A DNA stretch of 64,000 bases from Bilabrum cf. latius. Lineage: Eukaryota. The notes below the pieces were generated by a model, which did not search any database, was not told where the DNA came from, and saw only the letters and a list, made by a program, of their open reading frames with translations. Positions 1-64,000 of the stretch are shown one piece after another (the stretch's first letter is position 1; each line of letters begins with the position of its first letter). The stretch covers positions 806,001-870,000 of the forward strand of contig OZ237746.1 of assembly GCA_965178125.1 (NCBI GenBank), in the 5' to 3' direction. The position numbers and the translations under genes are program-made.

Positions 1-2110
1 AGCCCCAGCTCCCCGCAGCACCGCCCACAGCACCCTCGCGACAGCCCCCGGCTGCACCCACACCACCCCCTGGTCACGGAGCAGGGAACAAATCGGCTCC
101 GAGTCCGTGTCCCACCCACAGGCCCGAAAGGCCTCCTCGGCCGCTGTAGCGGAGCACAGGCTCGCACCGAACATCCTGCAGCAGGACTCGAGTGCGGGAA
201 GGGCCGTGCGGATGAGCCGGAGGCCAGCGGCATTGGCGGTGGAGACGTTCTTGGCCTTGCATGCCTGGACCAAAGCAGCCCAGGCGTCCCTCAGCCGGTC
301 TCCCAGGCTGAGTGCAGCCAGCGAGGAGTTGTCCACCACCTGGTCCATGTGACGAATGCGGCGCAAGGAGATGCCGAAGGCGGCCAGAGCGCCGTGAAGC
401 TGGCCGGGGCTGGGGCCTGTACCGGCGCCCGCTCCAGCAAGCCCCAAGGAGACATGGGCCGCCCCAGGCGCCCTGCCCCCCCTCGCGGCGACGACGGTGG
501 GGGGGAGAGGGCCCGAGGTTGCAACCACCGATCCACCGGTTGCAACCTCGGCGCGCCCGTCCACTCCCGTCCGCACCACCCGCGGGCCCAGGCCGTCGAG
601 GCCGGGCACGTCGCCCAGGATCGCCTAGTAGGCCCTGTCCGGGGATACCGGTGTGACGAGTGCGATGGGTGGGGACTGGGATGACTCGGAGCCGCTCCCG
701 TGGTGGCGATCCAGCAAGGCTTGTAGCCGCTGTCGCACGGCCGCAGCTCTCTCCACAGAGCCGTTGAGTTCCATGAGATGCGGCTCTTTGGAATCTTGCT
801 CTGAGGGGGGCTCCATGGGTCCACCGGTGGATTGGCTACTGCTGTTCCCTCCGACTGCCTGGCCCCCCGCAGCCGAAGCTCTCCCAGCAAGGAACCTGGA
901 AATACCCCCCGGCTCTAGGATCCCCTGCAGCGACTCGAGCACACACCCGTCCGACCTGTCCAGCACCTGCCCCTGCAGCGCAGCGCCGGCCTCTGGCCTT
1001 CCCAGCATGGCCAGCTGGCTCTCGAGCTGCTCCGCGCGGGGACTGATCCGACCCAGGGGACGGTCCAGCCAGGGAACATGTGTTCCCTGGGGCGGGCCGA
1101 CCGCACTCGTCACACCGGCTGCCTCCATCTGCACGTGCGTGATGTCGAGCAGCCGGATGCGTCGCATGCCACCGCGCATGCGTGGTACGGTGCAGCGGCC
1201 CACCCGCTTGGCAATGGTTCGGACCAGGCTAGATGCCGCTCCGACGGAGATGACCGCGCGCGCCTGTGCGGTTCTGAAGCTGCCACCGTCCGCGCTTGGA
1301 TGCAGTACCATCCAGCACGCTCTCTCCAGGGAGTGCACCAGCGAACGTTCGCCCACGAGCACGTGCCCCGCCAGCTCCAGGTCCCCTGGGAGCACCTGGA
1401 AGGCTGCCTCCCACAGCCGGGGTGCGTGGGAGTCCAGGCCACTGGCACTGGCACTAGGACCCGGAGCCGATCCACCGGTGGATTCCGCCCCGGGGGTCCC
1501 CGCGGATCCGGATCCGGAATTGGATCCGGAGCCGGTGCCGATGCCGGTGCTGTGCTTTCCTGAGGGCCTCACAAGCAGCAGCAGCACCCGCGCCACAGAG
1601 TCCACCAGGATCTCCCGGACGCTTGCCCCCCCACGGGGTTCCGGTCTAGCGGCGGACAGAGTTGCAGCCAGACGATCCAGGTTGCCATGTGCGTGCGCAT
1701 TAGGCCCTCCCCCCGCATTAGGCCCTCCCCCCGCCTGCGCCTCACTGCTGTGCATCTCCATGGCCCGCATGAATAGATCCACCAGCTGCGACATCCTCGC
1801 GATCACGTCGGCCGCCCACCGTTTCCTAAACTCCCGCCTCTCGTGTTCCCTGAGGGCGTCCCGGTGCACGCGCCAACGAGCCTAGCCACCGGTTGCAACC
1901 GCCCATTCCGTCACCGCGATGCAGTAGCTGTCCAGGGAACACAGGCTGCACTTGGGCTAGGAATGGGTCCTAGATGATGACGATGACGATGATGACGATG
2001 ATGACGAAGAACCGGTACCAGTGGACCACTGCTTCCCCTGCCCCTGCCCATGCCCCTGTCCATGCCCCTGCCCCTGCCCATGCCCATGCCCATGCCCATC
2101 CCCCTGCCCC

Positions 2111-2151
<41 letters not shown>

Positions 2152-3717
2152 CTGTCCATGCCCCGATTGGCTGATGCATTGCACGTGACACATGGCCCCG
2201 CAAGACGAGCACGCGACGAATGGCTGTTCCCTGGTGCTGCCCACCTCCTGGCAGGTCCTCAAATCTGGGGTGGTGCCGGGTGGGGTGTGACGAGTGAGAG
2301 TGCACAGGTTGGTAGGGGGGTGCTGGAACGGGTACCCGGCTTTGGCGCATTCTGCGAGCAGACCCGCCGGCAGCCTTGGCAGCAGACCCCCCCGCAAATC
2401 CGGCGTATGCGCGGGGAGGGCGGTCGCCACAGATACCGGGGCTTGGGTCTGGGCTGCCGCGACGGCTTTGGCTGCGGCCGCGGCTGCTTGCGCTGCTCCC
2501 GGCGCTGTGACGAGTGCTACGGCGCCCTGAGCGCTGGATGCGCGGTGTGACGAGTGACTTTGGCCGTGTGACGAGTGTAAGCGGTCCGACAGCATGGGTA
2601 CCTGTCCCCCAGGCATGGTGAGGTCACTCGTCACACTTGCCGGCCCAGTGCCCGCACTCAACACGCTGCTGGCACGCAAACCAGATGACTGTCTCGCGGG
2701 CCCGGTGCTGGGGTATGCCACATGGAGCAACCCAGGTACTGAGGCCCCGCTCAGGGGAACCCTAACCGGAACAGGCATGGCCAAAGGTGACGCGGGCTGG
2801 TGCTGCTGCAGCTGCTACGGCTGCTGCTGCAGCTGCGGTGTGCCATCTGGCCTGCTTGCGGTTGCCCCAGTGAAAGTGCCGCTGGCTGGTGCTTGTTGGT
2901 AATTCCCGCGCATGTCACTGGAATCATACCGAGCTGCGGCGCGCTGCCGATCGCCTATGGTAGAGCGACCGCTGGGGCTGCTGTTGGTGGTGGATCCGCC
3001 CCACTGGCTGTTGCCGCAGCTGCCGCTGCCGCTGCCGCTGCCGCTGCCGCTCGCCAAACTCAAAGCTGGGTCCATGGACATTGCTGCTCCCATTCCGGGC
3101 AATCTCGAGTTTCGGCCTCTCTGCAGCTAGATCCTAGCGCTTGGCAGCTGTATGACTTGTTCTTTCTGGACCGGCGGCCTGCCAGTGGCGTGGATGGAGT
3201 GCTCGTCCCCGTGCAAGTGCTCGTGCTCGCCCATGCCGCGAAGAGCGCCCGAGCCGGGGAGCTGGATCCCACGCCCGAACGACGACATCATGCCAGAAGG
3301 CAACTGCAAATCACCCGCCGTGCCTCCGCTCATAACGCTGTGGCTGCTGTGTACTGTGCGTTCGGACGGCATGGTGAGCACATTGCCACCGGCGGTTGAG
3401 AGCTGTCGTCGTCCGGGTGGAATCTGACGCAGACTCGGGTCGTACTAAAGCCCAGCCTAAGATTCGGAGCTAACGGATCCGTATGCTGAAGTTTGGCTTC
3501 GCGGTATCGTGCCGTCGCGATGCCTTGGGGGCGGCAAGAATTCCCCTCCGGTGAGCGAGCTCCCACCAGCGAGCGACTCACCGCTCGCCAGGCTTGCTGA
3601 CTCAAACCCATCGTGCAAACGACCATTCTACTCCAGGCCCAATTGATTTAGTGTAAGATCCGCCGAGCCACCGGCAGATAGGTCGAACGTATCTTGTGCA
3701 TGGCCCTATCGATCCAT
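1..3717 (-). CDS. Large hypothetical protein (3' end outside window), low-complexity N-terminus and PHD/C1-like Cys/His cluster; needs TAG=Gln
   Basis: ORFs 3127..3381, 2815..3102, 1957..2784 and 625..1869 share one frame and are separated only by TAG. The frame stays open from ATG 3717 (MDRQGHAQ...) to base 1. It contains FVACSSCGAMCHVQC...KCSLC, split by GH/GQ and Ser tracts. No family recognised. Confidence 0.75.
1973..2165. repeat. Coding microsatellites: (GAT/GAC)n and (CCCATG/CCCCTG)n encoding poly-Ser and GH/GQ tracts
   Basis: Directly visible tri- and hexanucleotide arrays. Confidence 0.85.
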
Positions 3718-3944: not shown

Positions 3945-6900
3945 ATGCATACCGGGAATGCGTGCACGCGCTTGGGGCGCTAGACTCGCTCTTTGAGGCG
4001 ACTGCGACCGCGCAACCGAGCATTGGCGTCCTCTGTGCGCCGGTCGGCCCTCCAGCGAACGCCACTGAAAGTCGGCATGGCGCTGCACACGTCGGCTTCG
4101 CAACAATCCTAGGATATGACGAAGGATGCCCCGCTTGCGGCTTTCGAAGTGCCGTCCACCTCTGCCGTTGGGCTGGCAACGCAAGGCACATCGTGGAGCG
4201 AGGGCGTGGAAGACGCCTGGAAGCGCGACCTCGCAGAGTTCCAGGCGCGATACGAGAGCGAAGCCACCGAGGATATCCTTCGTTCGAACGTCCACGTTGC
4301 TTTTCTCTGCGACCTGCAGATGAAGCGGTGCTCGCACCTCCTACCCGCATTCCTGGAGCACGTGTTTCGCATCCAGGCCAGGGCCAAATCGGACGGCCGC
4401 GCGCCGAGCCAGTCATTCGCCTCTACCAGGCTCGTCAATCTGCTGCAGGCCGTGTTCGACACAATCCCGCCGGACGCTGTCCGCGGCACCGTCGCCGTCC
4501 TACATGGGCTGCTGGACAGCCGCCTCGACGCAGCGCAGGCGCAGGGGGGAGATGACGCGGCCTCCGCGTCCAGCGGACCCGTGGTGGAGGCGTTCCTTCA
4601 CGTGGGCTTTCTAACCACCGTGATGACCGCCCTGAGGATGTGCCCCTCGACGCAGGTGCAGCCCATTGCGCCGCTCCGCTGGCTGGGCCTCGCCTCCAGG
4701 GGCGAGCTGGCGGATTCGGAGGAGGCCAGGGCGCTTGCGCGGCGCCTTGCGGAACTTCAGCCGCCCACGCCGTACGAGAGGGAGCCCATCGGCACCGGCA
4801 CGGCTTCCTCTTCCTCTGCCACTGCGGGCGCCGCGCACGGGCCCCGGTTCCGCACTGACATGATGGCAGTGCCACAGGCACTCGTTCGACCGGCTGGGCA
4901 GCCCCACATGCCGCCCGCCGACGCGGCCGCGGATTCTGGCGCTGTTCCCCAGGGAACAAGGGCGAGGGATGGGGGCCCCGCCCCGGGGGAGGAGGTGACG
5001 CTCCCGCAGAACCTTCGCGAACTCGACCGGTTCCACAAGTGGACGAGGGACTTTGCCAGCACCCCCTTCCACGCCCCCTTCGGCAAGGACTCCTTCGGCA
5101 AGCTGCTGCCCCCCCCGATCGCATTCGAGGCGCACGAGTGGAGGAGAGAGTCACTGTCGTGGCCCGTCGCCGGAGTGCACTGCACCTTTGACGAGGCGGC
5201 CGCCCTGCTGCTGACATGCGAGGCGCCCACGTTCTTCACCGCTGATTCCGAGTCGTTCACCCAGGCCCAGATGCTCAGGTACCTGTGGATGTACGCGGAC
5301 GATCCGTCGGCGGGCGGCATTTTAGACGACTCTTGGGGCGCCTACCCCCGATTGGAGGAGCCGTCCCAGGGGGGTGTAGGAGGGGGGGGTGTAGGAGGGG
5401 GGGGAACTGAGTCAACCGACGGCCCAGGTGGTCAAGGCGTGACGAGCGGTGACGGAAGCAGCAGTGACAGCGCTGGCACGGGCACGAGCACGGGCACGAG
5501 AAAGAGCAAAGGAAGAGGCAGAGGGGCAGAGGGCAGGTCCACCCGGCCCAAGCACAAAGCCAACTACAGAGGGCAAGCTGTGCCCGCCCCCGGTGCCCAA
5601 GAAGAGGCGACGGCGAAGGAGCTGCGGGCCCGGCTGGACGAGAGGCTGGCGGGGCTGAGCGAGGAGGAGAAGCAATCTATCATCGAGAGGCAGGACCCCG
5701 CCCTTGCCATGCAGAACCCGCAGCTGGCACTGGCACAGGCAGAGTACGAGGCGATGATGAGGGAACAGCAGGAAGAGGGAGAAGAGGGCGGAGCAGGGGC
5801 AGGAACACGAGGCAGCGCGCAGGCACGCATGCGGCTGGCCAAGCGGCTGCAGGGGCTGCGTGCCACGATCGCTGACACGGCCGCTCGCCTCTGGGGGCCC
5901 ACGGATACCCCCTCCCAGCGGAGAGTGAAGGTCATTGAGGCCGTGCATGGGATGCTGCAGGGGTACAACTACGCCCTGCTGGCCTCGTGGATGGACATCT
6001 ACTTCCTCTCAGGGAACAAAGAGGCCCTGGAGGCGGTGCAGGAGGTGGCTGCCGTGTGGACCAGGTTCGGAGCTCTGCCGTTCGCCAAGCGACTGGGAGG
6101 ACAGCGCCCAGGGAACAACAGCGGGAGCAGGAGCAAGGGACCTTCGGACCAGCCGGAGCCCGTGCCGGTAGACCCGCGGGACAGCTTCGCGGCCGGTCTG
6201 GTCTTGGACCGGGATGCCGTGCCTGCACCGCTGGCGGGACCCGGGGCGATGCACACGTACCCTGACGGCTTGCTCGCCCTCGAGGCATCACGCAGCGCGA
6301 TGTTCCTTGCCCTTGTTTTGCTGGAGCTGGAGCCGGCGCTGCTGGAGCGGTTCGGGAACCGGCTGTGGGGCGGTGTGACGAGCAGGTACCTGGCGATGAG
6401 GAAGGTTCAGTCCCAGCGAACCCAGGCCTCCATGCGTGACCTTGGGACGGTGCACGGGAGCGTGGCGTTCGCCCCGGTGTGCGAGCAGTCGCTGTGGGTG
6501 GAGGACGGGGGGACGCAGCCCGGCGACGTGCTGTCCAAGACACGGGCCAGGGACGCTCTGCTGCGGGCCGCGGGGGAGGCCCAGCTGCGGAGGCGTGCGC
6601 TGTATGAGGGTCCACTGGTGGGTCTGAGGGCCATGGGGGGGGAGGAGGAGGGGGCCTCGGAGGGGAGGTGGGGGGGTCTTCTGGACGTGGAGGGGCTTGG
6701 GTGGAGGGGCTGGGGGCATGGGGGGGAACCCCATGGTGGGGGCCCGGGGGTGCTCAGGGGTGCCCCCGAGACAGTGACGTCACTCTACTCGGACAACAAG
6801 GAGAGGAAATCGGCTTGGCCCGCGCTCAAGGCGCCTATCCTGCGGGCGGTCACCCGGCGGGGGATGTTCCACGGTGCCGCCGACGCCAGCATCCAGCGGA

Positions 6901-10976: not shown

Positions 10977-13900
10977 ATGTCGGTCGAATCCACGTCGGAT
11001 GACCAGGTCATGTTCAATGCACGAGATGGGATGGAGATCTCCGCAGAGGATGAAATGAATGCAAAGAAACTGCGCGAGAGAGCGCCAGATGCTGTCGATT
11101 TGGCAACAGCAGAGCTTCGCGACGATAGGATGAACGGCATGAAGACGAGCTTTCGCGAAGTGCCCGACAGCGTGCTCTGGGGTCCGTCTGCAGACCTTGA
11201 AATGTGGACAGTGATGGCATCAGGCCGCGAGCTCCACCGCATCGCGCGTTTCAACGCGCAGAAGGAAGCGGCGGCCCGGCGCAGACTTGCCGAGCGCGAC
11301 TACCACCGCTCGCGACAGGGATACCCCCAGCTGGAGGGGAGCGCGATAGATGCGCCACAATCGAATTAGCAAGGAGGATTCAATGAAAGTTTCCGCTACA
11401 ATTCCCCAGGGGACGGTGGAACGGGCCGGTCCGCGCCCCTGCCGCCCATCGCGTCCGCTCGCTCCGGGACAGGTGTGACGATTGACCTCGCGCGGTCCAC
11501 GGCCTGGGACGCCGAAACCGACATGAGGCAAGGAGACACTCATCACACCGGCCTGGACCGAGGCTCCTCGTCATCGTCCTCGGTGCAGTACCTGGGTTCC
11601 AGGACCGGGGCTGGACCGGGGGGAGTGCCAGGGGGGGGAGTGTCCTTCGGGGGCGCCGGGGGCACACCAGGTGGGGGCGCCTCAAACCGCAAATAGGCAT
11701 GGGGCACGCCAAGGGCCGGGGCTGGGGCTGGGGTGCAGGGAACAACCGGGGCCCTGCATGCGTTTTCCGCCTCCTTACCTGCGCCAGCCACTGGCCATCA
11801 CGGTCAGCACGACACCGGCGTTGCGCTGCGACGGGCAGGAAGCGCACGTTCATTGGCTCCCCTTGGCGGATCCACGGCAGGAGGAAGGTCGGGTTTGGGA
11901 GCGGCAGGCGCTTCGGCTGGAGCCGGCGGGGTCCCCGGTCCGAATCCCTTCGCGCCGGTGGAAAAAGGAGGCCTTGGGATCGGGGTGACATACGGCTCCG
12001 AATCCAAGTCCCAGGGAACAAGCCGGCGGGTGCGCCGGGGCTTCACCACGGCGGGCGCTGTGGTGGCACCGGTGCTGGACACTTTGGCCACGGCGGATGC
12101 GCCCCCTGCCCCCGCCGAGGACGATCAGTTCTGCGAAGAAGTCTGCGGTGCCATCAAGTGCGCGGGGCTGGAGGGGGCGAGCGACGCCGACTTCAAGGCG
12201 GCTTCTGACAGCGCATGCGGGATGCTCAGGGTACTGGAGGCGGGGCACTGCGGAGATCTCACGGACGTGGGACTCAGGGCCGTCGCTTTGGGTAGCCCGC
12301 GGCTGGAGGTGCTGGACGTGAGCGGGTGCAAGGGGGTGGCTGGGCCGGGGCTGGCTGCGGTGGCGGATCACTGTTCCCTGCTGCAGGTCCTGAAACTGAA
12401 CGAGCTGCCGAGGCTGGACACGTGGGTCTGCAACCGGCTCGGGCTCAGCTGCACTGCACTGCGGGTGCTGGAGGTCTCGCAGGTCATGGCTCTGACAGAC
12501 GAATCGCTGGACCGGATGGTGAGAGGGTGCAGCGCACTGCGGGAACTCCGGATCGCGCGGTGCGCGCAGGTGACGGACCAGGGTGTGATGAGTGTGGCGA
12601 ACGCGTGCCCTCGGCTTGAGGTGCTGGACGTGAGCAGGAGGCCGCACGACGCGGCCTACGCCATCACGGACACGAGCCTGATGCAGGTGGGGGCTCGGTG
12701 CCCTGGGCTGGTGAGGCTGGACATCAGCGGGTGCGAGAACGTGAGCGACGTGGGTCTGCAGTACATCGGGGAGGGCTGTTCCGGTTTGGTGAGTCTAAGG
12801 GCGAGGGGGTGCGGGATGCTGGCGGACGCGGGCCTGAGGGCCGTGGCGGATCATTGTTCCGGTTTGCAGGAGGCGGCGCTGGGGGGCTGCCGGCGGGTGA
12901 CGGACCTGGGCCTGCGGGCGCTGGCGCAAGGGTGCAGGGAACTGCGGCAGCTGGACCTGGGCGGGCTGTTCCTTCTGACGGATGGGAGGGAGGCCCGGGC
13001 GGATCGGATCATTCGGGAGAACAAGGGCAGGGGCAGGGGCAGGGGCAGGTACGCCGGGAAGAATGGGAGGGGGGTAGGGAGAAAGACCGGAAGCGGGTCT
13101 AGGCGGCAGCGAGGAGGACGAGGTACAGGTGGAGGTGGCAAAAGGGCCCAGGGAACAGGAGTCACAGTGCCGGGGGACCAGCGGGTCCGCAGGGGCAGGG
13201 GCCCAGACCCGCTTCCACCGCCCCCGCAAAGGCTGCTGGAGCAGGGGGCTGGGCTGCTGACGGCGGCGCAGGGAAAGCCGCTGGTGAGGCACCTGGCCGG
13301 GGGCAGGGGTCCAGGGAACAAGGGCGGCGGTGCGATGGGGCGGTCCGGAGGGCGGCTCGGGAGGGCGGGTGCAGTGCACGATGCTGAGAGCAAGGAGAGG
13401 CCGCTTCCCGACTTGGGCATGAGTGTGACGAGTGGAGCCTTGTCCCGGGACACCCTGCCTCATCAGTCCCAGGGACGTGGGGTGGCCCCGGGCTCGTCAC
13501 ACCCTGGCTCGGGCCGCGGTTGGACCGCCGCGGAACTCGAGCACACCCTCCGGACGAAATCCGGAGCCAATTTATCCGAGGCGCTCGCCGCCAGCAAGAC
13601 GGGGCATGGAGGTGGTGTGACGAGTGGACGGATCCGCGCCCCTCCGCTGCCCGTCCCCCCAGAGGTGACGGGCCTGCGTGCCCTAGCCTTCACGAGGGCC
13701 CCCCTCCGGGTATTGAACCTGGGAGGGTGCCAACAGGTGGGTGACGAGTCGCTGGTTCCGCTGTGCCGCGCGTGCGGACCCACACTGACGTCACTGTGCG
13801 TGTCATCGTGCGGAAACCTGACCCCATCCGGACTGGCGCTGGCACTTCCCTCGCTGCCCCGCCTCCGGAAGCTCGTCGCGCAGGACCTACCCGGAGCCGT

Positions 13901-16900
13901 AAATGCGGGGGTGATGGAGGCCGTGGGGGCCGCGGCCACACGAGGGGAGGCATGCTCCCGGCTGTCCCACGCCGATTTCACGCGGTGCACGGGGGTCGTG
14001 GACCTGGGTGTGGCGGCGCTGACCCGGGGGTGCCTGGGCCTAGAACGGCTCATCCTGGACGGCTGCACCCGGCTCACCGACCTCAGCATGTTTTCAGTCG
14101 CGGAGCGGGAGTTCAAGCCCGGCTTGCTGGAGCTCCGGATCGCTGGGATCCCAGCGGTGACGGACACTGGCGTGAGCTGGGTGGCGATGCGGTGCTCCAG
14201 GCTCCTGTGGCTGCAGCTGAAGGGATGCTCCGTGTCCTTGGCGGGTTTAAAGGCCATGTCGGCGGGGTTCCGGGACACGAGGATCCGCAGCGACGACCGC
14301 TGGTTCGGAGTGGTGCCCACGGAGACGGCCCTGAGGAAGAGGAGGATCGAGGAGTACGGGGTGGGCTGGATGGCGGCTCTGCGATTGCAGTCAATCGCGA
14401 GGGGGAGGAAGGCGCGGGCGGTGGTCAGGAGCATCCGCAGGAAGCATGCGGGGCGAAGGGCCGTGGTGCAGCTGCAGACCAAATGGAGGACCGTCATGGC
14501 CAGGAGGCGGGTGGACCAAATGAGGAGGGAGCGAGACACTCGTCACACCGCCAGCGTGCTGGTGCAGAGCTTCTGGAGGCGGTGCATGGCCCGCACTGAG
14601 CTGGCACGGCGCCGGGCCCGCAGGGCGGAAGAGCGGAGGCACCTCGCCGCCGCTCGGATCCAGGCCCTCTGGAGGGGCGTGCTGGCCCGCAGGCAGCTTG
14701 ACAGGGAACAAGAGGAGGCCAGGCGCGACCGCATTGCCCGGCACCGTGCGGCACGCATCGTGCAGAGGGTATGGAGGGGGGTGCTGGGCCGTAGGCAGTT
14801 TGCCCTGCACGCGGCGCGGGTCCGATCCTGGATGGCGCAGCAGGACCGCGCGGCGCGGGAGATGCAGCGCATTGCAAGGGGGCACGCACAGCGCCGCCGC
14901 GTCCGCCGCATGAAGAAGAAGAGCGTGGAGCAAGCCGCCGTCCTGGTGCGCGCCGCGACTCGGATCCAGACGGCGTACAGGGGGCGCCTGGCCAGGCGGA
15001 TCCGGGAGCGGCTGGGGCTTCAGGCCGAGCTTGAGCATGACGCCGCCACGTGCATTTAGGCCAGCTGGCGAGCCAAGCAGGGGCGGCTGGCCTCACACAT
15101 GATCAGGGTGGCTCGGCGGGGCCAGGCGGAGGAAGGGGCGGCTCTGCTCGTGCAGAAGGCGTGGAGGGGGAGGCAGGGGCGGTTCGCTGCTTTTTTGCTG
15201 TCTAGGGCCAGGGCAGAGAAGGAGAAGGAAACGGAGAAGGCGGCTCTGTTCGTGCAGCGGGTGTGGAGGGGGCACCGGGGCCGCAAGGCAGTTGCCGCGA
15301 GGCGGGTGGAGATGATGCGGGCGATGCTCAAGCAGAGGAACGTGTTCATGTGGGCGGCGTCCACGATCCAGAGGGTGTGGAGGGGGGTGCTGGCACGGCG
15401 GAGGGCAGGGGCGCTTCGGGAGGAGAGGGCGAAGAGGTGGGTGCGGCTGCCCATGGACGAGATTGACGATGAAGGTGAGGATGAGGACGAGATTGGTGGT
15501 CAAAGTGGGGAATAGGGTGGGCAAAGCGGCGAGCGCAGCCGGGAGGTGTGGTTCGACAGGAACAGCGGGGAGGTGCGCCGCCGGGCCCCGCAGGAAGTGC
15601 TGGACCTGCTGCCCAAGCCCCAGTGCGACAACTGCGAGAACAGGACGGCGTGGTTCGAGTGCCGGCAGTGCCGGGAGTACTATTGTGACGAGTGTTTCCC
15701 CGCAGTGCACTCCGGCGGCAAGCGCGCGAAGCACGCATTCCGTCCCCTGTTCGACTACTACGGCAGGCGGGTGGACTATGGCGACGGGGACTGGCCGGGT
15801 GCCTGGCCCTCGGAGATTGAGCAAGACGAGGAGAGGGGGTGGCACGCGCGGGTTGCAACTGCTCTGGAGGACGCGCCCCCAGGGTGGGGGGGCGGGGGCG
15901 GGGGCGGGGGTGTGGGGGGTGTTCCCCCGGGGCCCGAAGACCCCCTCTCGGCGTCCATGGGGTCATCTATGTTCGCGGAATCCACCGGTGGAGCAGCAGA
16001 GGTGCGCAGCACCCCCGTCGGGATGGAACACCAGGTGCAGGGGCAGGGGCAAGACACGTGGGGTGCTCCCGGCATGCAGCTGCAGGACACTTGGGGCCAC
16101 GGCAGCATCGCCTCCCAGGGCCACGGTCAAGGGGGGTATGACGAGGGCGATGGGCATGGGGGGTATGACGAGGGCCAGGGTCAAGTGGGGTATGACGAGG
16201 GCGATGGGCATGGGGGGGCGATGGCGATGGGCATGGGCATGGGCTTGGGCATGGGCTTGGCTGGCGGAGGGGCAGTGTCCCCCGGATCCACCGGTGGATG
16301 GGCGGACGTGACCGGGGGCAGCGCCGCAATGAGCCATGGACTCGGGAATGGCAAGGGCTAGGGGGACGCCTTTGGTGCGCAGGCCACGCAGGCCGCGGCT
16401 CTGGCGGGTCGGGACGACGGCCTCCACAGCGGGACAGCGCACGCCACTGTGGAGGAGAGGGAGGGCGGCAACGATGGGTACGAGAAGAGGCTGGATCCCA
16501 TGGGCGGAGACGTGGTGTACCTGGATACCAAGACCGGGGCGGCCACTCGGAAGAGGCCTGTGTTCTTCGCCACGCCCCGGCCTGACGAGGACGAGGACGA
16601 CGATCTTTTCCTCGGAGATGCGACCGGTGGCGCAGTCGGATCCACGCCCGCCGGTTTGGCCACCCCGAACCGACCCGCGGACGGCCTTTAGCCCCTGGAG
16701 CCAGGGGCGGGCGGCTGGCTCAAGTACCTCGATGACGCGTCCGGGGCCGTGTACTACTTTCACCCCCACACAGGTGCCACCCAGTGGGAGAGGCCAATCG
16801 AGTACTCCACGCCCCGCGATCACCGAGGCAGGGCGGGGGTCCCTGCGCCCAACCCGGCGTCGGCTGCGGCGACGGACGGGATGGGCTGGGGGGGAAATGG

Positions 16901-26100: not shown

Positions 26101-27773
26101 GGGAGATCCCCGGGGGTGGTTGCAACCCACGCGGTGCCCCCAGTGCGGGGGTTCCGCGGGTCTGCAGCTGTGGCTGAGCCTGGGCCTGACTAACCAGCAT
26201 GGCCCAGCTCCGCCCCAGCAGGGGCATCGGTCCAGGCCAGGGTCTCTCCGGTAGCGGCCGAGGCGACTGTGGTGTTGCTGCTGCTGGTGCTGATGGTGCT
26301 GATGGTGCTGCTGCTGCCACGCTCCTGGTCTATGTTTCGGTCCATGTCTAGCCTCCTTCGCTTGCCGAGGGGTCCTGTGTACGTGCATGCGCCTGATGCT
26401 GGCGAGGAGCTGCCACCGTAGTGCGATGCACCCGTCGCGGCTGCCGCATCCGCCTTCACACGGCCACCGTCTCTAGCCCCCTCGTCCCCCCATTCCCAGT
26501 TCCATTTCCAGGGAACAAGCCCCACGACGTGCCTCCCGCTGGCAGCGGCAAGCTCTACAAGCAATGCACCCAGAGCAGCTTGCAACCGACGGTGAACACA
26601 CCTCCTTGGTTTGGAATCACCTCCACAATGCACGCCCCCCTCCTCCTTGGCATCCTTTCCTGGGCCAATCCTGGACGCTAGCAGGGCCAGGGGATGGCCC
26701 AGTGTGACGAGTACTGGCCCTGCTTGGTTCAATCTGGTCGAGGCATCCATGGAACGCGCCCCACTCGGTGCTGCCTGCTCCAACTCTGGGTCCGGTGCGG
26801 AACTCAGGCTGGTGGTGGTGACAGAATTGGTCGAACTTACCTTGGCATCGCCACCTGGGCGACCAATTGACGCCCGCAAAGAAATCGCAGGTTCTTCTCC
26901 GATGGCATTTTGCAACGACAGCACACCCTTCAACTGGGGCATCCAGAAGCCGGACAGTGAGGCTTCCCTTGGCCAGTACCCCGGCCTTGGCCACACGATC
27001 GAGGGGAGGCCGTAGAGCACCGGCGGGAGTCGATCCTGGGACTAGGACTCACGGGGTTCGCGAGCAGCTGCCTTGGCGAATCGCTGCACGGTCCAACTTG
27101 CGGCTGGTCCCGGCCCCTGCCAGTGCATGGCTCCTGGCTGCTCGCTCATCGCCAGGCTCGGGGCACTTGCTCCGTGCTCGCTCACCGCCAGTCCGAGCAA
27201 CCTGGCGAGGAGGTCGAATCGCCGGCTGCACAGGGCGAATCCCCAGTGATCGAACGAGGCGAGCACGTTATTTGTACTAGCAGTTTCACTTGCGGATTGG
27301 TCGGAGCACGCCTCGAGCATCTGCGCCAGGGCTGCCCTGCTGGTGCACCGACGAGGGGCTTCGCCGTGCGACGCCGGCATCACGTATGGACTTGCCCAGG
27401 CAAACGCAATCTGATTGTCGCTGGCCATGTACGTTTGCACGTATTGCTGTACCAAGAAAGTTTCAAGGGCAAAGAAATTCGCTACGACCAGCAATCTGGT
27501 ACGTCGCCGCAAGAGGCTGGATATCACGCCGAGGACACTGATGCCTATAGCAGCGGACCGGACGCCCCGTTGGGAATTAAGTATGATAGGATCGTCTACA
27601 GGAACATATTCGATTTTTGAATCTACGTACTGACGGATCCAGCCTGCATGGTCCGCAGGAGCCACAAATGTGCAATCACCGCTACGATTGACTAGCTCCT
27701 GCGCAAGACCCAGCAGCGGCTGCACATCGCCCCTGCTACCTAGCCCAACTATAATGACCGTATATGCTTCCAT
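23157..27773 (-). CDS. GT1 (sterol glucosyltransferase-like) glycosyltransferase fused to an FkbM-family methyltransferase (~1538 aa)
   Basis: GT-B motifs: GSRGDVQPLLGLAQEL, PVLYGLPSIVWPRPGYWP...GFW and HGGSGTVAA...GVPQVLAPRMYDQHGWA. FkbM motifs: VLDIGAHVGLFS, AEP and LKVDVEGGELGVL. One frame with 5 TAGs; TGA stop. Confidence 0.8.
24545..24730. repeat. Coding minisatellite encoding (S)nGSNAG linker
   Basis: Repeated gctcccggcattgctcccggagctggag units. Confidence 0.8.
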
Positions 27774-39700: not shown

Positions 39701-42700
39701 CAGCAGTACAAGCGCCGCCCCGGCCACCCCGCCCACGTAGAGAACAAGAGGCTGCAGCAGCAGCCATATGGACGGGGAGGACGGGCACAGCTGGCAACTC
39801 CCGTCTGTCTCTGGATACCTCCCGTCTTCGCACCTGGAACACGCGGTGGAATCCTGCCTGTATCCCACCCCGCACACGGACATCTCCGCGGCCTCATCCC
39901 AGCCCAGGCAGCGCTGCTCGGCAGGCGTGTCGCACCTCAGCACCAGCCCGCTGCCTTCCTCCTGCGACCAGTACCCGGGCAAAGGGTGCGCCTTGAATCC
40001 ACCGGGACACGCCGCACCGCTGGGACAGGCCCTGCACTCGTCACCCGCACCAAAAGCGCAGACTAGTCCCGCCCTCACTGCCTCTCGATCCGCGCACAGT
40101 GCCCCTGGCTCGGGATACCCCACGCATTGCTCCACGTACTCTATGCCCCCTTTCAGCACGAGAGCCGCGATGTCCCCATCGGTCACCTCGTGCCCTGCCC
40201 CTGCCACGTGCAGCACCTCGTGCTCGGAAGGAGCCTTTGCAGCGTCGTTTATCTATACCGAAGCAGGTGCTACCAGCACGCAGCCCTGTATCTCCCCCCC
40301 TGAGGCAGCCGCCCGCCCCCCTGCGGATCTCCACTGCCGGACGATCGCGTCTTTCCCGCACAGTGCACGGGCAATGCGAGCCGTGGTAGTGTCTACTTGG
40401 ACCAGCTGCGGATTGCCACCGGTTGCAGGTGGCGGAGACGTGTCGTTGAGTTGCTGCAGGGCGCGTCGACTGGAAGCCACAGTGTCACCGGCGCCTTCAG
40501 TCAGCTCGACGCCATCGAAGTCCAGGACGGGAGGCCAATCCACCGACGGGTGTGCGGAGCCCTCTGGTGTCCGAAGCGGAGGAGGGACGATCAGCACAGC
40601 CTGTACGCCGCACACTGTGCTAGCTTCATTTTGTTCTGCCCGTTCACTTGTGGAGCTGTTGCTGCGGCCCGGCGGACCACCGCACACGCTCTGCTGCTCG
40701 GGCAGCTGCACCCGCGCCACGTCAAACTCTCGAGACACGTCCAGGATGGTGGCTTGCACCCCGCCCACGAACACCAGCGCGGATGGTGGGAGGCATGGGA
40801 CCCTGGAGACCCCATCGTAGGCAAGGGGACATGCCACTGTCACTGACGCGGCCCCACTGACGATCAGCTTGGGACCCACCCATGGATTGAGCGAGCCGAG
40901 TGACCGAGCCGCCTGCCTGGCTCGCACCAACTCTTCCGATGATGCGTTCGACGGCAGCTGCTGCTGCTGTCCATCGGGCCCGGCCGATTCATTGGATAGT
41001 CGCCTAGCCAGACCAGGCGATAGCTAGCGTCCGCTAGATGGTCGGTGCAAGAGTCGCCTGCTGGTCCTGCTCTGGTCCCCGGTGGGTGCGCCCGACCCCG
41101 CTCCAGCATTGCCGTCTGCTCCCACGCCTGACCCCCACGCCGACACGAACCGCGATGTCCGCCCCAGCAGCTCAGCCGCAGACCCTGGTGCCGGTCTCCA
41201 GTCCAGCGCACCATCTGCCTCTGTGCCCCACACTGCGTCCGGCAGCCTCGTCAGGATGTCGCCGGGATTGGGCCAGCGGATTGGCTGCAGTCGCACCGGG
41301 ATGGCCATTGCAATGGGGCTCTGGTACGTTGCCATAGGGCCAGGGCCAGCGAGTCTGGAGATGGCTTCCACGGAGGGCTAGAATCCAGGACCTGCTGACG
41401 ATGCCTGGGAGGCCATCTGGGATGCATCGGCTGCAGTTGTACCTGCAAGCACGCACACCACCCACACTGTCTTTTGCCCATCGCCACTCGGCGCCTGGTC
41501 CATGGCAAGCCCGGATTCCGCTGCCCTCGACAGCTGAATCCTGATCTGGATCTCAGGGATTCTCCCGCCAGACCATGCAGACCCAGGCAACGAGACCTGC
41601 TGCACAGCCGGCACCGCCACCAGCCCGGGGTCAGAAGCATCGGTGGCATCAACCCGCTGTGCGGCTGCAGCGCCGTGCGTCTTGCACGCCACAATCACGC
41701 CCTCCCCGTCGATCGGAGCCGCCGGGATGCCAATGCCAAAGCGGGTCTCCTGGATCACAGAGGCGATCAGCGCGCTTTCACCCATTGGAAACTGTCTCTC
41801 GGGAACTGAGTCCAATAGCAAGGATGCCTTGATGGACGCCGGATGCAGCCCGCCCTCCTCGACCCGTCGCTCCAGATCCTCGGGATCTGCCACCGGCTCC
41901 AGCACCGCCACCTGCACGCCCTCATCGCCCTCACCCCCTGCCACCGCACCAAGGGAAGAGCACTCCGAGAGGGCAAGGTCCACCGGTGAGCCGAGCAGAT
42001 CCGGAGCGATGCTGGGCCCAGTGGACCCAAACACGCCCACGCGCCGAAGCGCGCCCGCCCCTGGCCCCTGGCCCTGGCTCTGACCTACAACGGTGAATCC
42101 CAGTTCCACCTCCACACACACTGCGCTGTTCCCCTCGGCACTCTGCGCATCAGCCGCCTACAGAGCAGCGTCACCGGTGGCAGCCAGGCGGCTGGGGCTA
42201 CCTGGCTGGTCCAATTGACGCAGCACGGCCGCGGCGTCCTCCAGCGCCGACTGGGCAGGACGGGGAGACACAAAGTGCTCCAGCAGCAACCCATGGGCGC
42301 CTGCACTCTCTATCGCTCGGCGGCCCACCGATGCACTGCTCTCACGCACCACTCTGGCGGTCGCGCTGATCCCTGAGACATGCTCCCCATCCAGAACAGT
42401 GGCTGTCACGCCCAGCTCGGCCCCTGGCTGCACTGCCTTCCAGAGCGCCTCGAATCTCCACGCAGAGCGTGAGCTGTCTGCTGGTGGTGGTGCCAGCTGC
42501 AGGTGTAGTGTGGAACGGGGTCTGACCGTGCTGAGACTGCCCGCATCAAATTGATCTGGCATTGCCCCGAACAGCATGGTCAGGTTGATGCTTCGCGGAA
42601 GCCACCCGATGGCATGGGTGGCACCAGCGCTGTCCCTGGAGCCAATGGTCCCGGCGACCATGGCAGCGGTCGGCGGGTGCATCGAATGCCCCTCGCCAAG

Positions 42701-55207: not shown

Positions 55208-58200
55208 ATGGAGACGACAATCGGAATGCTGACTGCCGGCGGCAAGGCGAGGGCCTCCAGCACATCCAGAGCACAATCTAAGGTGGTGCGTCGATCTAGA
55301 GCACCAACGTCAGGCCGGTAGGCAAGTGGGAGCTTGGCACCGTCTGCGGCAGCCTTGCATGGCACCAAGCAGCCGTCCCGCAGGGAGCTGGAAGCAGTCG
55401 CTGCAGGCGTCGTGCCTGGCACCTCTTCGATCGTAGGGGCCACGGTGCGCGGACTAGCCTTAGGAAAAGGTGTTGCGTCCACACAGCCAGTCGCAGCCGG
55501 CGCGCGAAAGCCACCAAAAGGAGTCGGCGGCCGCTCCCGCATGGCGCCCTCGACGATGCTCCTCTCGCTGGCGGCGGGGGATGCGCAGCTGGCGAGGGCG
55601 GCCGAGGTAGCGGGATCGGGGGCAGGGAACGACGGGTCGGTCATTCCCGGGCGGCGGTCGGAGGCACCTGCCCGGTACAAGATCACAGAGGTGAGACACA
55701 CAGAGGCAGCGGCAACTGCATGGCATGGCAGTGGCAGTCGCGCGATGACAGTGGTAGTGGCAGGGGCATGGCAATGCCAGTAGCTCAGATGATATGAGCG
55801 AGCTGGCCCACCACTTGTCCATCCCCCTTGCCATGCGCACGCACTCGCGACTCGCACGCCGCCACTGCCCCCCCCTCTCTCGTCTCCAAGGATGCGTTCA
55901 GATCCCTCTGCTCTCTTGCCGCACCACTCGTCACACCCACTCCCTCCTTTCTCCCCACCAACCGCAGCTGCTGGACCTGAAGGACCACTCGAGCCAGCCG
56001 TGCGCCGTGCCCCTCTCGCAGCCCATCTTCGTGCCCCTGCCCGCTGCGGTGCACTTCTCCCAGTACGAGCCCTTCCGGCCCGAGGAACAGAGACTCATCC
56101 TGAGGAACACGGACAGGGTCCCGCGCAGGGTCAGGGTGGTCAAACCCGACACGCAGCATTTTTCCGTGCGGGGTCCCTTCGACGGCGCGGGGCGGCCGCT
56201 CTAGGACTCGAGGGTCGCGCCTGGCACCGAGGTGACGTACACCGTGCGCTTCGACCCCGCCGAGGCGGCCGATTACGCGCACGACCTGACGATAGTGACG
56301 GAGCGGGAGAAGTTCATCGTGCCCTTGAGGGCGGTGGGCCCCCGGGCGTTCCTTACGCTCCCCGATGCGGTCGAGTTCGACTCTACCCCGTGCCGCACGG
56401 CCACCACCCGGCGCTTCATGGTGAGGAACGAGGGGGCCAAGGACGCCGTGGTGCGGCTGTAGACGAGGCTGCCGGGTGGCATCAGGGGGGAGTGCCCCTT
56501 CGCGGTGGAACCGGCGCGGGCCCGCGTGGCTGCCGGTGCGGCTCTGCAGCTGACGGTCACGTTCACCCCCCCCACGTCCGACGAGCACGAGGGGGAGCTG
56601 GAGTGCGTGTACCTGGACGAAGAGGGGGAGGACGGCGGGGATGATGATGATAGCGGTGGTGGTGACGAGGATGCGTATGGCGCTGGCGGTGGGATCCGGG
56701 GGGGGCTCGGCGGATCCACCGGTGGATTGGCGGGGGTGGAGTCCAAGGGACCCGAGGACGAGGACGAGGACGAGGACGACGAGGATGATGATGTGGGGGC
56801 CCCCGCTGTCCCCAGAAACCCCGTGGCCGTGGTGCGGCTGCTGGGCACGGGTCACGACACGGACGTTGTTCTCTCTGGATCCATGCTCTCCTTCCCCGAC
56901 ACGTACCTTCAGCTGGCCTCCACCGCCACCGTGAGGCTCACCAACCGGAGCGAGAACCCCGTGCGGTTCTCCTGGCGAGCCATGGCGCACCGGGGGGTGG
57001 AGCAGGACGAGAAGGCCCGGATTCAGGCCGCTCTGGAGGACCAGCGGAGGAGCGAGGCCAGGGCGGTGATGGCGGACAGCGTGCGGGGCGGGGGCAGCGC
57101 GGCGGACGGGGACCTGAGCGAGGACGAGGAGGAGGGGGCGGCGGCTGCCGCGGGTGACGAGGGGCTCGCCGCAACGCAGGCCAGCCTTGGTGGCGCGGCG
57201 CGGCCCTCGCTGGAGGCCCGCGCACAGCTGCAGGCAGCGGAGAGGAGGCACCGCACGATGCGGCGGGAGGCTGCCGAGGCACCCTTGCTGTTCGAGGACG
57301 GTGCCTTTCGGATCGAGCCTCTGGAGGGGCAGGTGTGGGCGCACTCGGAGCAGGAATTCACCGTGACGTTTGTTCCCCAGCACGCGGGGGCCCACGAGAT
57401 CTCGGCCTTTCTGGAGGTGCAGGGGCGCGAGAAGAGGCTGCCGCTGGTGCTGCGGGCCACCGGTGTGGGGCCCAAGGCCATCCTGTCCTTCGACCAGCTG
57501 GACATGGGCGATGTCACTGTGACGAGTGTGAGGAGGTACGAGCTGCAGCTGTTCAACAAGGGCGAGATTCCGTGCGAGTGGTCCGCGGCGGGGTCCATGG
57601 GCCCGTTCGCCGACTGCTTTAGGTTCAGCCCCCCCAGCGGCGTGCTGCGGGTGGGGGAGAAAGTCGACCTGGAGATGGAGTTCTGCTCCAGGCAGCTGGG
57701 GGAGGTGGCGGAGACGGCCGTGTTCGAGCTGGTGGGGAGCGCCGACCCCGTGCCCCTGCAGCTGAGGGGGCAGGTGGTCCCTCCCGCCCTGCAGGCGGAC
57801 GTGGACGCTTTCACCTTCGGGCGCGTGGGCTTCGACTTCGAGTACCCCGCCCGCGCCAGGCTGCACAACCTAAGCGATGTGCCCGCACTCGTGCAGCTGA
57901 GGGTACCCGACGATTTCGAGGGGAGGAGGGCGGAGTTCCGGCTTAGGCCCGCCCCTTTGGCCATCGAGGACGGGAGCCGATCCGAGGAGGGGGGGGAGGA
58001 GAGAGGGGAGGACGGGGGGTAGGAAGAAAGCGAAGGACCCCAGGAGATCCCCCCTGGCGGGAGCATCCCCATGAGCGTGGTGTTCCACCCCAGGACGCTC
58101 AAGCAGTACGCCACCGCCGTCAGCGTGGACGTGGTGGGGGTGGGCAAAGGCGTTCTGGCCGTCCCCGTCAAGGCCTCCTGCGGTGTGGGCGAGCTGGTGC

Positions 58201-61200: not shown

Positions 61201-64000
61201 TCACCGAGTCCATGCGCTGCGTGCCGTCGCGGGGCAGGGTGCTTCCCAAGCAGACGGTCACCCTGCAGCTGAGGCTGCTGCCCGGCCTACCCGGCAAGAT
61301 TGAGGAGACCGTGCTGCTGCGGGTGGGCCACCTGGAGCCGCAGGCAATCCAGGTGCGCGCCAACGCGGTGTTTCCGCTGGTGACGCTCCCGGGGCTCCGG
61401 CGGAGAGACGCCCTCGAGTGGTCTCAGGCGGTGGAGGATGCCGAGGCCGAGCTGGTGAGGCAGGAGGGGGCCAGGCAGCGGGAGGCGGCGGTGCAGGCCC
61501 AGAGGGTGGCCCTCATGGTGGACGACCCGGAGGCATAGCAGGAGCAGGTGCAGGGCACTGCGGGGCTCAGGGGGGATGCCTCGATGAGCACCGTGGACTC
61601 GGCCTCGTCCAGCCTGGTGCTGCTGCCGCCGCTCGGCGGCGGGGATGACTCGGGTGTTGGTGCGAGCGGCGGCAGCTCCCAAGCCGATGTGGGCGGGAGC
61701 GGGGGCACGCAAGGTGCACCACCACAACCACCGTTGCGAGGCGGCGGCGGGGACGATGACGACGGCTTCGAGCCCCTGGACGGCGGGCAGCAGCTACCAT
61801 CGGGCGTCTCGCTAGCGGACGCAGCCGCGGCTCAGGAGGAGAGGGAGGACCAGGCGGCTGGGCTCAGCACCGCGAGGGGGGGGCCTTCGTCCAGGCAGGG
61901 AACAGGGGGCCGCAGCACCCGGGGGTCCGATGGGGCTCTGGGCGAGTCCCACGATCTCCCCGTGGACGTTGTTCCCCAGGGCCCGGCCTACCCCGAGGGC
62001 TGGACCTCGGACGGGCGGCCCCCGCTGGAGCTGGTGGAGGCAGAGGCCACGAGGGCGCTCTTCGTGCGGTTCCTCAGGGAACAAGAGGTCGAGCTGGCCG
62101 AGACGGCGATGAGGAAATCCAGGGCAGCCAGCAGGCGGGCGGCATCCAGGGCGGGCGTGGGCGGGCCAGGGCCCGGATCCGTCTCAATGCCCAGGGCTCC
62201 ATCTGCCGCCGCCTCCATGGTCTCGTCGTCGACGGTGAGGGGCGCCACCGCCACCGCAGCCGTGCAGCTGCCCGGGGGCCTGGCGCCGCGCGAGAGGGAC
62301 GCACTCGTCAGGCGGCACGTGACCGGTCGGTTCGTGTGCGATCTGGGGGCGGCGCATCGGGGGTCGGGGCGGCGGCAGCGCACGATAGAGCTCAAGAACG
62401 TGGGCGGGCGGGCGGCCAGTGTCACCGCCGACACGGGCCGGATGGCAGAGCTGGGCATGCGCATGGACCCCGGTAAGGTGGCCAGGCTGGCACCCGGCGA
62501 CAGCGCCAGTGTGACGATTGCGTACCAGGTGCCCCGCCGCGCCAAGCTTGGCGTCCACGAGATCGAGGCCGTGCTGAGCTGCCCGGGGGGGCCCTCGGCC
62601 GTGCTCGTGGTGAGGCTGCACGTGACGGAGCCCGCGCTGCAGGTGTACCCCAGGGTGCTGGACTTCGGGTGCATTGCACTGGAGCACGAGCGGATCGAGC
62701 CGGTGCTGCTGATCAACCCGACCCCCCTGCCGGTGCAGTGGGAGAGGGGCCAGCTGACGACTCTGTCGCCGGACAAGAAGGAGGAGGGCGAGCTGTTCCA
62801 GGTAGACCCCCCCGAGGGCGGCATCGTGCCGGCCAACGGGGCCTCACTCGTCACACTGAGGTTCGCGCCCACGCCCCGGCTGGCGATGAAGCCCCCGCCA
62901 AAGGCGAAAAGCAGGGGGGCGCGCACCGCCAGCCGGGGAACACGTTCGGGGGGGGTAAGGGACGCGGCAAGCGGGCGCCACCGCCCTGCCGCTGTGGCGG
63001 GGATCTGCCTCCGGTTGCGACCGGTGGGCGCCCCCGCCGGGGCCGCCTCCCAGATGCCCAAGAAACTGACTCCCCCGAAGGAACTGACCACGGGCGGACA
63101 CGGGCCCACCGGCGGGCCGGGCCCCGGCGCCACCCAGGCTACCCCCCTCGTGACTGCTCCCCTCCTGTGGGCAAGGGGAGCCACCGAGCTGCTGTCCGTG
63201 CAGGTGGACCCCCCGCGCCTGGACCTCGGCCACGTGCTGCCTGCGGGCGGCAGGGTGGTCAAAGGCGAAGGTGGCGAGGGTGGTCCGTCCAGCGGTGCCG
63301 GCGGTCCGCCAGGAAGCGGGGAAGCGGCTTCCTCATCGTCCAGCGATGGATCCGCCCCTTCGCCTCCGGGGCCCTACGACGCACACGCGCTCGTCACACT
63401 GCGGAACCCCTCCGATTCCCGCTGGATGGAGGTGGCGGCGCCGCAGCTCGACGCTCAGCTCCAAGCGGAACAGGCTGTGCTGTACGCCGCGGGGCAGCTG
63501 CTGGCTCGCGGGGTGGACCTGTCCTCTGGTTTGGACGAGGACGACACGGCTGGGCTGGGCGTCGGTATGGGAGGGGGAGGTGGCGGCGGTGGGCTGTTTG
63601 GCGGGATGTTGGGCGGTGGCGTGCTGCGGCTGCCCCCCCACGTGCCCGGGGAGGGCCTTCCGCGGTGGCTGCTGCAGGCAGTGAGCCAGGCGGGGCAGGA
63701 ACAGGGGCAGGAGGCCGGGGGTGCTGGCGGGGGCATGGAGCCTCCTGCCTTCAGAGGAGCTGCTGAATAGGAGGATTAGCAGGTGCAGGAGCTATAGGCG
63801 GGTGACACAGGAAACCGGGGCTAGGGTCCTCCTCCCCGGTGGCCCGCCGGTCCACCGGTGGATCGGTCCCCCCGCGCCGCAAGCTCCGCACTCCGTATGC
63901 TGGGCAAGGCAGTGACCGTGGCCGTGTCGGCGCCCCCCTGCGGAGGGGAGGGGCAGGTGGCCGGGGCGCTTGCAGACAAGCTGTCCGGGCCTGTGCTCAC
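55208..64000 (+). CDS. HYDIN: HYDIN-like axonemal central-pair protein (5' part; exon 55208-55690, then 55968 to beyond the window)
   Basis: ITE|LLDL...IFVPLP...LILRNTDRVPRRVRV...DYAHDLTIVTEREKFIVPLRAVGPRAFL matches the HYDIN N-terminus as I recall it. Tandem ASH/Ig-like modules follow, with a degenerate P-loop-like segment at the window end. 10 in-frame TAGs and no TAA/TGA. Confidence 0.88.
55691..55967 (+). other. Spliceosomal intron (277 nt, phase 0) in HYDIN
   Basis: GAG|GTGAGA...pyrimidine tract...CCGCAG|CTG; the join gives KITELLDL. Confidence 0.8.

Follow-up and report, generated by a model that had tools for sequence, protein, structure and literature searches.

A 12-nucleotide word iterated on both strands of protein-coding DNA in a 64-kb window of Bilabrum cf. 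latius

The window analysed here, a single stretch of 64 kb from the eukaryote Bilabrum cf. latius (contig OZ237746.1, positions 806,001 to 870,000), contains a non-palindromic word of 12 nucleotides, GTGTGACGAGTG, that recurs on both strands of translated DNA. This main word is accompanied by at least three further words that are over-represented and co-localise with it, and all word statistics given below refer to this window. Its copies are quite possibly DNA-level recognition words that were fixed more often than by chance via an abundant sequence-specific DNA-binding protein, which is the explanation put forward here as the best one; we infer both the protein and the biased fixation.

The 10-mer GTGTGACGAG (or CTCGTCACAC when read on the opposite strand) was found in 15 exact copies in the whole window, 8 on the plus and 7 on the minus strand, at each of the 15 positions listed in a first-pass annotation of this DNA, which had also claimed that their number lies far above expectation. 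The expected number was 0.12 copies on average in 100 dinucleotide-preserving shuffles (maximum 2) and 0.07 under a codon-order shuffle. When every amino acid was kept and synonymous codons were permuted within blocks of 300 codons, the mean of 300 such shuffles was 0.18 (maximum 2), and over all 700 shuffles of the three nulls the maximum remained at 2 copies. Thus, the claimed excess stood, and within the window it survived the codon- and amino-acid-preserving control that the annotation had proposed.

Extension to the 12-mer GTGTGACGAGTG was seen in 11 of the 15 copies, and the window holds 38 matches to this 12-mer (11 exact, 11 with one mismatch and 16 with two mismatches) against 6.37 expected. 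In seven of the 11 one-mismatch copies the change falls within the outer four positions, which would slightly favour a binding-site matrix over neutral decay. When 24 copies were compared, information content above 0.5 bit was restricted to the 12 positions of the word, with weaker preferences in the flank for C at position -1 (14/24) and for a purine at position 0 (21/24). The fuller form of the word is C-R-GTGTGACGAGTG, with nothing further common to the copies, and no second block of an extended or bipartite motif was detected within ±30 nt of the 24 copies. Self-BLAST with 9-nt words gave three high-scoring segment pairs overlapping any of these copies (17 nt, 100% identical; 63 nt, 71%; 26 nt, 85%), comparison of the oriented flanks among copies revealed no resemblance, and none of the tandem arrays of the window covers a copy. 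The copies cannot be traced to a single degraded repeat family, raised by the annotation as a possible source, nor to any mobile-element family that could be recognised, as no fully identical flank exceeds 17 nt and the information is confined to 14 positions. The copies are also not an artefact of one assembly, since they are identical in contigs from two different studies, with 0 differing letters along the copy-bearing stretches 1-1966 and 10792-16162 in run X1 and 1-1708 and 13090-15209 in run X5. The exact and one-mismatch copies are listed below with the open reading frames (ORFs) that host them; five of the copies are crowded into 352 bp (2285-2636).

651..662, plus strand: exact 12-mer GTGTGACGAGTG, antisense to ORF A, phase 1 (LVT)
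1104..1115, minus strand: exact 12-mer, sense in ORF A, phase 1 (GVTS)
2285..2296, plus strand: exact 12-mer, antisense to ORF A, phase 2 (TRHT)
2505..2516, plus strand: one-mismatch copy CTGTGACGAGTG, antisense to ORF A (LVT)
2545..2556, plus strand: exact 12-mer, antisense to ORF A, phase 0 (HSSH)
2566..2577, plus strand: exact 12-mer, antisense to ORF A, phase 0 (HSSH); left arm of the inverted pair 2566-2636
2625..2636, minus strand: exact 12-mer, sense in ORF A, phase 1 (SVTS); right arm of the pair 2566-2636 (71 bp)
6373..6382, plus strand: exact 10-mer (12-mer GTGTGACGAGCA), sense in ORF B, phase 1 (GVTS)
11473..11484, plus strand: one-mismatch copy GTGTGACGATTG, sense in ORF D, phase 1; left arm of the pair 11473-11548 (76 bp)
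11537..11548, minus strand: one-mismatch copy GTGTGATGAGTG, antisense to ORF D; right arm of the pair 11473-11548
13423..13434, plus strand: exact 12-mer, sense in ORF D, phase 1 (SVTS), in a 684-nt insert; left arm of the pair 13423-13502 (80 bp)
13493..13502, minus strand: exact 10-mer (12-mer GTGTGACGAGCC), antisense to ORF D, phase 0 (GSSH), in the 684-nt insert; right arm of the pair 13423-13502
13615..13626, plus strand: exact 12-mer, sense in ORF D, phase 1 (GVTS), in the 684-nt insert
14537..14548, minus strand: exact 12-mer, antisense to ORF D, phase 2 (TRHT), between IQ motifs; ungapped against the homolog P0001
25426..25437, minus strand: one-mismatch copy GCGTGACGAGTG, sense in ORF F, phase 2; may be due to chance
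26702..26711, plus strand: exact 10-mer (12-mer ending in TA), antisense to ORF F, phase 1 (LVT)
40035..40046, minus strand: one-mismatch copy GGGTGACGAGTG, in ORF H; may be due to chance, with no other near copy from 26.7 to 55.9 kb
55925..55936, minus strand: exact 12-mer, antisense in the N-terminal part of the HYDIN frame, past both candidate ATGs (55794 and 55833)
57517..57528, plus strand: one-mismatch copy CTGTGACGAGTG, sense in HYDIN, phase 1 (TVTS)
62509..62520, plus strand: one-mismatch copy GTGTGACGATTG, sense in HYDIN, phase 1 (SVTI)
62845..62856, minus strand: exact 12-mer, antisense in HYDIN, phase 1 (SLVTL)
63390..63399, minus strand: exact 10-mer (12-mer GTGTGACGAGCG), antisense in HYDIN, phase 1 (ALVTL)

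All 15 exact copies lie within 12 open frames, 5 of them in sense and 10 in antisense orientation with respect to the host frame, and the proportion becomes 12:12 when one-mismatch copies are included. The five exact sense copies are all in phase 1, where they read xGT GTG ACG AGT G and encode Gly/Ser-Val-Thr-Ser with the rare T-ending codon AGT; none was found in phase 0, which would spell TGA, nor in phase 2, which would encode Cys-Asp-Glu. The ten exact antisense copies are distributed over the three phases (3, 4 and 3 copies, encoding HSSH, LVT and TRHT, respectively). Depending on strand and frame, the same word is therefore read as four different peptides, VTS, LVT, TRH(T) and HSSH, a pattern consistent with a DNA word on which protein tolerance acts as a filter. 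As the spelling is identical despite the synonymous freedom available (15 copies vs. 0.18), the word would act at the DNA level. The annotation had stated that the copies occur in both orientations relative to transcription, are not tied to one peptide and look like a DNA-level signal, and the two strands, the four readings and the constant spelling bear this out.

The 12 host frames are open when TAG is read as a sense codon. With this reading, frames of 608-2750 codons occupy 55,080 of the 64,000 bases (~86% of the window). TAG occurs in frame 100 times in them, and TGA and TAA 0 times; TAA may be either a stop or a sense codon in a window so rich in GC. The other five frames of each ORF have 3-122 TGA/TAA stops apiece. 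The Pfam domains detected on the long frames are eukaryotic, related to cilia and signalling (HYDIN/ASH Ig-like; LRR with IQ, B-box and WW; kinase with Armadillo; FG-GAP; and a Senescence domain), and the stops within the frames that bear them were TAG every time and never TGA or TAA (among others, TAG at 15057, 15513, 16359, 16689, 17142, 20085, 20211, 58020, 61077 and 61536). In the alignment with the homolog P0001, the TAG at 15057 takes the place of the invariant Q of an IQ motif, and in the FG-GAP repeats 12 TAG fall into two columns with a Q consensus, one with 18 Q and 5 TAG and the other with 11 Q and 7 TAG. Therefore, these alignments indicate that TAG is most likely a sense codon for glutamine; genes end at TGA at 7320, 17268 and 22263.

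The window is gene-dense and without evident introns, and alignments with homologs keep one frame throughout. With TAG as sense, the HYDIN frame (55749-63998) is continuous and no intron was found in it; the intron in which the annotation had placed one copy has to be dropped, as it appeared because TAG had been read as a stop. If TAG encodes glutamine, standard gene callers would break genes of this kind, and the breaks can pass for introns, as in the HYDIN case. A survey of the literature at the level of titles found reassignment of TAG in other lineages and none for stramenopiles. In the window, a conserved epimerase-like gene has as its best named relative a protein of a bicosoecid stramenopile, with 74% identity, which gives a hint of the lineage.

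The comparison with homologs shows how some copies sit in conserved coding sequence. P0014 is a HYDIN fragment of a related organism with 59-60% identity, whose alignment is ungapped at three copies. The window reads SLVTL at 62845 where P0014 has SLVKI, at 63390 ALVTL corresponds to AVVSL, and at 62509 SVTI corresponds to PLAV, with four consecutive changes between near-identical flanks. The copy at 14537 is likewise ungapped, in this case against P0001. Therefore, the copies at 14537, 62509, 62845 and 63390 are not insertions. The sites at 62509, 62845 and 63390 are not shared by the P0014 protein, the one relative compared, at the protein level; either the coding sequence would have changed to the word at these sites or the relative would have changed away from it. 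No HYDIN relative closer than P0014 was found in the length range searched.

Three more copies (13423, 13493 and 13615), along with two copies of CAGGGAACA, one of the companion words, lie in a 684-nt in-frame segment (12987-13670) of the LRR-IQ-B-box-WW gene, in which the homologs have 7-8 residues. This segment has a poor coding score, but 0 stops in the frame of the gene against 1-6 in each other frame, and is either a translated young insertion or an unusual intron.

As for the arrangement of the copies, six of the 24 form three convergent inverted pairs (2566-2636, 11473-11548 and 13423-13502), and the remaining ones are solo or in direct orientation. The inverted pairs fold as hairpins in which the word is the stem, with z from -1.3 to -3.4.

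The companion words, which had been overlooked in the annotation, were obtained from the most over-represented 8-10-mers after masking of tandem repeats, which fell into four groups including the main word. Their sites are the following.

ATCCACCGGTGGAT, a palindrome, (AT)CCACCGGTGG(AT), 8 sites: 821, 1472, 15982, 16288, 25259, 56716, 60151, 63852
CAGGGAACA, 21 sites with strand, first part: 82+, 1070+, 1081-, 1844-, 1933+, 2225-, 4950+, 6010+, 6109+, 8740+, 11736+
CAGGGAACA, second part: 12012+, 12372-, 13149+, 13312+, 14702+, 23596-, 26509+, 54004-, 61896+, 62075+
GGTTGCAACC, a palindrome, 6 sites: 517, 538, 1891, 7446, 25848, 26118

Under the synonymous shuffle, 0.59 copies were expected for ATCCACCGGTGGAT (8 observed), 0.94 for CAGGGAACA (21 observed) and 0.10 for GGTTGCAACC (5 observed inside ORFs), so that the three words are enriched 14- to 50-fold. 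The CAGGGAACA copies are in sense in 16 cases, in all three phases, and in antisense in 5 cases, in phases 0 and 2. Per 4-kb bin, the density of the main word tracks that of the three companions (Spearman 0.85, p = 3.5e-5), and its correlation with GC content is weaker (0.64). The 27 kb between 26712 and 54003, which hold tandem LRR paralogs, a frame of 2594 codons and an FG-GAP repeat gene, contain none of the 50 exact sites counted for the four words. A general excess of palindromes was also considered and rejected, as palindromic 14-mers are only modestly over-represented (11 vs. 4.6 expected) and this excess is driven by ATCCACCGGTGGAT. As minor observations on these words, the two GGTTGCAACC palindromes at 517-547 are 21 nt apart, the same spacing as that of the main-word copies at 2545 and 2566, and several GGTTGCAACC sites have CCACC just before them, with CCACCGGT thus being common to the GGTTGCAACC and the ATCCACCGGTGGAT palindromes.

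In the explanation that we favour, an abundant sequence-specific DNA-binding protein would recognise GTGTGACGAGTG or its fuller form in the nuclear genome of this intron-poor, GC-rich flagellate, and the copies would arise in place in translated DNA, replacing the earlier sequence without insertion or deletion. Their fixation would be favoured either by selection for binding or by a bias of repair or conversion coupled to binding, and selection at the protein level would then filter them, leaving those in frames with small or tolerated residues (VTS, LVT, TRH, HSS).

Several points weigh against this explanation. All the evidence comes from a single window of 64 kb. The three inverted pairs and the cluster of five copies in 352 bp resemble small hairpin elements more than independent sites, and three copies plus two CAGGGAACA within the 684-nt segment absent from homologs would suit inserted DNA. 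The differences from P0014 amount to three sites at an overall divergence of 40% and may be either gains in this lineage or losses in the relative. Gene families or base composition, instead of a signal at the level of domains, could explain why 27 kb are free of the words. Finally, the bias of the copies to weakly coding or low-complexity sequence of the host genes is not significant (p ~0.10 and ~0.18), and filtering by protein tolerance therefore has the frame distribution as its sole basis.

Words of this type are known from bacteria, where they reveal hidden processes such as biased DNA uptake, methylation-linked repair or control of recombination. The DNA uptake sequence (DUS) of Neisseria is a 10-12-mer and the uptake signal sequence (USS) of Pasteurellaceae has a 9-mer core, and both accumulate since the competence machinery takes up the DNA that bears them. 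The main word shares with them a non-palindromic form of 10-12 bp, presence on both strands and location in tolerated frames of coding DNA. DUS and USS are over-represented hundreds of times, and their sites are unconserved within conserved coding sequence; as in this window, some of the sites form inverted pairs and parts of the genome have none. In contrast, the host here is a eukaryote, with HYDIN, IQ, WW, Arm and kinase genes and without known comparable uptake, the density is ~1 per 4 kb in one window instead of ~1 per kb, and at least four words coexist.

The second comparison is with HIP1, the highly iterated palindrome GCGATCGC of cyanobacteria, which is enriched genome-wide irrespective of gene, frame and strand; the annotation had drawn this analogy, together with that of a mutational drive, and it is a reasonable one. 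Both are short words thought to act at the DNA level, and the companions ATCCACCGGTGGAT and GGTTGCAACC are palindromic. The main word, however, differs from its own reverse complement and so is not a palindromic octamer like HIP1, spans 12-14 bp rather than 8, and resides in a eukaryotic host with no cognate methyltransferase known. What it has in common with DUS, USS and HIP1 is an enrichment in this window far above nulls that preserve composition, codons and amino acids, and copies that are independent of gene, strand and frame and have unrelated flanks. By analogy, the feature may be a bacterial type of genome word, here in a eukaryote, and, if present genome-wide, it would point to a sequence-specific DNA system strong enough to override synonymous and some amino-acid choice. 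We know of no eukaryotic nuclear genome with a non-repeat 12-mer over-represented ~100-fold in coding DNA on both strands, plus companions. In titles and the opening lines of abstracts, none of these words was treated as a genomic signal, they appeared only as primers or oligonucleotides in unrelated papers, and no iterated words of such kind were described there in a nuclear genome.

A broader version of this analogy is possible, although we regard it as rather doubtful: GTGTGACGAGTG, ATCCACCGGTGGAT, CAGGGAACA and GGTTGCAACC would form a small vocabulary written into long-resident nuclear DNA, as a eukaryotic counterpart of the uptake- and HIP-type words. The cause would be either a conversion bias coupled to recognition or selection for an abundant DNA-binding system, and the words would mark 'old self' DNA, leaving without them genes that are compositionally different or recently expanded, such as those of the 27-kb stretch.

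The arrangement in pairs raises the alternative that the words are the terminal inverted repeats of a minimal non-autonomous hairpin element, similar to a miniature inverted-repeat transposable element (MITE), which we consider unlikely. The full elements would be the pairs of 71-80 bp, the solo copies would be decayed or half-deleted, and in an intron-poor genome only frame-keeping insertions would survive. Short, clustered inverted repeats 70-80 bp apart and capable of forming hairpins are indeed found in MITEs and in bacterial repetitive extragenic palindromic (REP) or Correia-type elements, and the similar span of the three convergent pairs (71, 76 and 80 bp), the pairing that runs a few bases past the word in two of them, and the clustering of copies, with five in 2285-2636 and three in the 684-nt segment without homolog counterpart, would all be expected from such an origin. 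The palindromes ATCCACCGGTGGAT and GGTTGCAACC and the CAGGGAACA pair at 1070/1081 could likewise be abutted terminal repeats. However, the three pairs have unrelated interiors, and the flanks of the 24 copies show no similarity to one another; no target-site duplication was seen, as judged by eye, at the three pairs; and their lengths are not multiples of three, yet the reading frame continues unchanged through them. Moreover, at least four copies (14537, 62509, 62845 and 63390), among them solo ones, are ungapped with respect to homologs, which would be impossible for an insertion.

A scan of metagenomes with the inverted pair GTGTGACGAG-N40-70-CTCGTCACAC as the query gave at least 120 loci and spoke in the same direction, as the matches listed were unrelated bacterial repeats. 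Nearly all the loci listed were low-GC bacterial repeats of the form GTGTGACGAGTTGAC. Among the matches listed, the 10 loci above 60% GC contained no extra copies and no consistent signal of TAG as sense, nor any of the other words except for a single CACCGGTG 8-mer in one of them. Inverted pairs of GTGTGACGAGTTGAC 60-90 bp apart were seen in many bacterial contigs, with a recurrent 82-bp locus in dozens of assemblies. These repeats belong to a bacterial family without relation to the main word, and the 10-mer is common to both by coincidence. Within the window itself, the AT-richer stretch 9420-10820, without coding signal, is a multi-copy element, because the depth of its contig was ~13 times that of its neighbours in run X1 (582 vs. 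~45). It was tried as a source of the word and rejected, as it lacks convincing terminal repeats and matches the word at only two sites, each with two mismatches.

Equally improbable, in our opinion, is a neutral templated 'writing' of the words, in which short patches would be converted to the word during repair and would spread as a neutral or mildly deleterious drive. The patches would be copied either from words already present, in very short ectopic conversion events, or from a nucleic-acid template that is abundant. Such a process would account for the replacement of sequence without insertions or deletions, for the apparent change en bloc of four residues at 62509, and for the fact that several unrelated words behave alike in the same regions; the relation of 11 exact to 11 one-mismatch to ~10 two-mismatch copies above background also fits, by our own calculation, a decay of ~8% per site. 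Nevertheless, no template was found, with no RNA gene detected by Rfam in the window, we know of no mechanism that converts 12 nt without flanking homology, and the location of 7/11 mismatches at outer positions is unlike neutral decay. This alternative overlaps with recognition by a DNA-binding protein if the bias is coupled to that protein.

A signal at the RNA level, either a splice site, an introner end, a ribozyme core or the site of an RNA-binding protein in transcripts, is highly improbable. The word starts with GT, the copy at 13615 is 37 nt upstream of a pyrimidine tract and an AG at 13662, the region 12987-13670 is missing in homologs and has a poor coding score, and UGACGAG resembles the CUGANGA box of the hammerhead ribozyme. 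In addition, the introners of Micromonas and Aureococcus are also dispersed in many copies among the genes of GC-rich protists. However, introners are 100-200 bp long, similar over their full length and spliced, whereas here only 12-14 bp are common to copies that occur on both strands of continuous frames. The RNA or splicing interpretation fails because of this strand symmetry (5 sense and 10 antisense exact copies, and 12:12 when one-mismatch copies are added) and because frames with 0 TGA or TAA run through every copy; also, copies are found where the sequence is conserved and translated, the end of the inverted pairs is AC instead of AG, and a search of the whole window against Rfam gave 0 matches at the gathering score. 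No clean splice joint was found at the copies in contigs of four runs, which is weak evidence as these contigs look like DNA. With TAG as sense and the frames continuous, the splice-site, branch-point and introner readings were dropped. Finally, chance, codon usage, a low-complexity peptide or an assembly artefact, which a GC-rich genome with low-complexity coding sequence and tandem repeats might invite, can practically be dismissed in view of 15 copies against 0.07-0.18 under the three nulls, four encoded peptides, no copy in a tandem array and identical contigs from two studies.

Regarding the remaining genes, the window is GC-rich, with much low-complexity coding sequence and many tandem repeats. 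The FG-GAP repeat protein is encoded on the minus strand at 44562-51881 (2439 codons) in units of 216 bp (72 residues), some of which form 432-bp blocks with 97% identity; its gene has 27 in-frame TAG and none of the four words. Two tandem paralogous LRR genes on the plus strand (31397-33652 and 33865-36609) are also word-free and have near-identical C-terminal parts, with identical strings of 80 nt around 33189 and 36149. Hexamer arrays of (CCCATG)n and relatives at 2035-2163 and 16117-16260 encode Gly-His or Gly-Gln runs within open frames.

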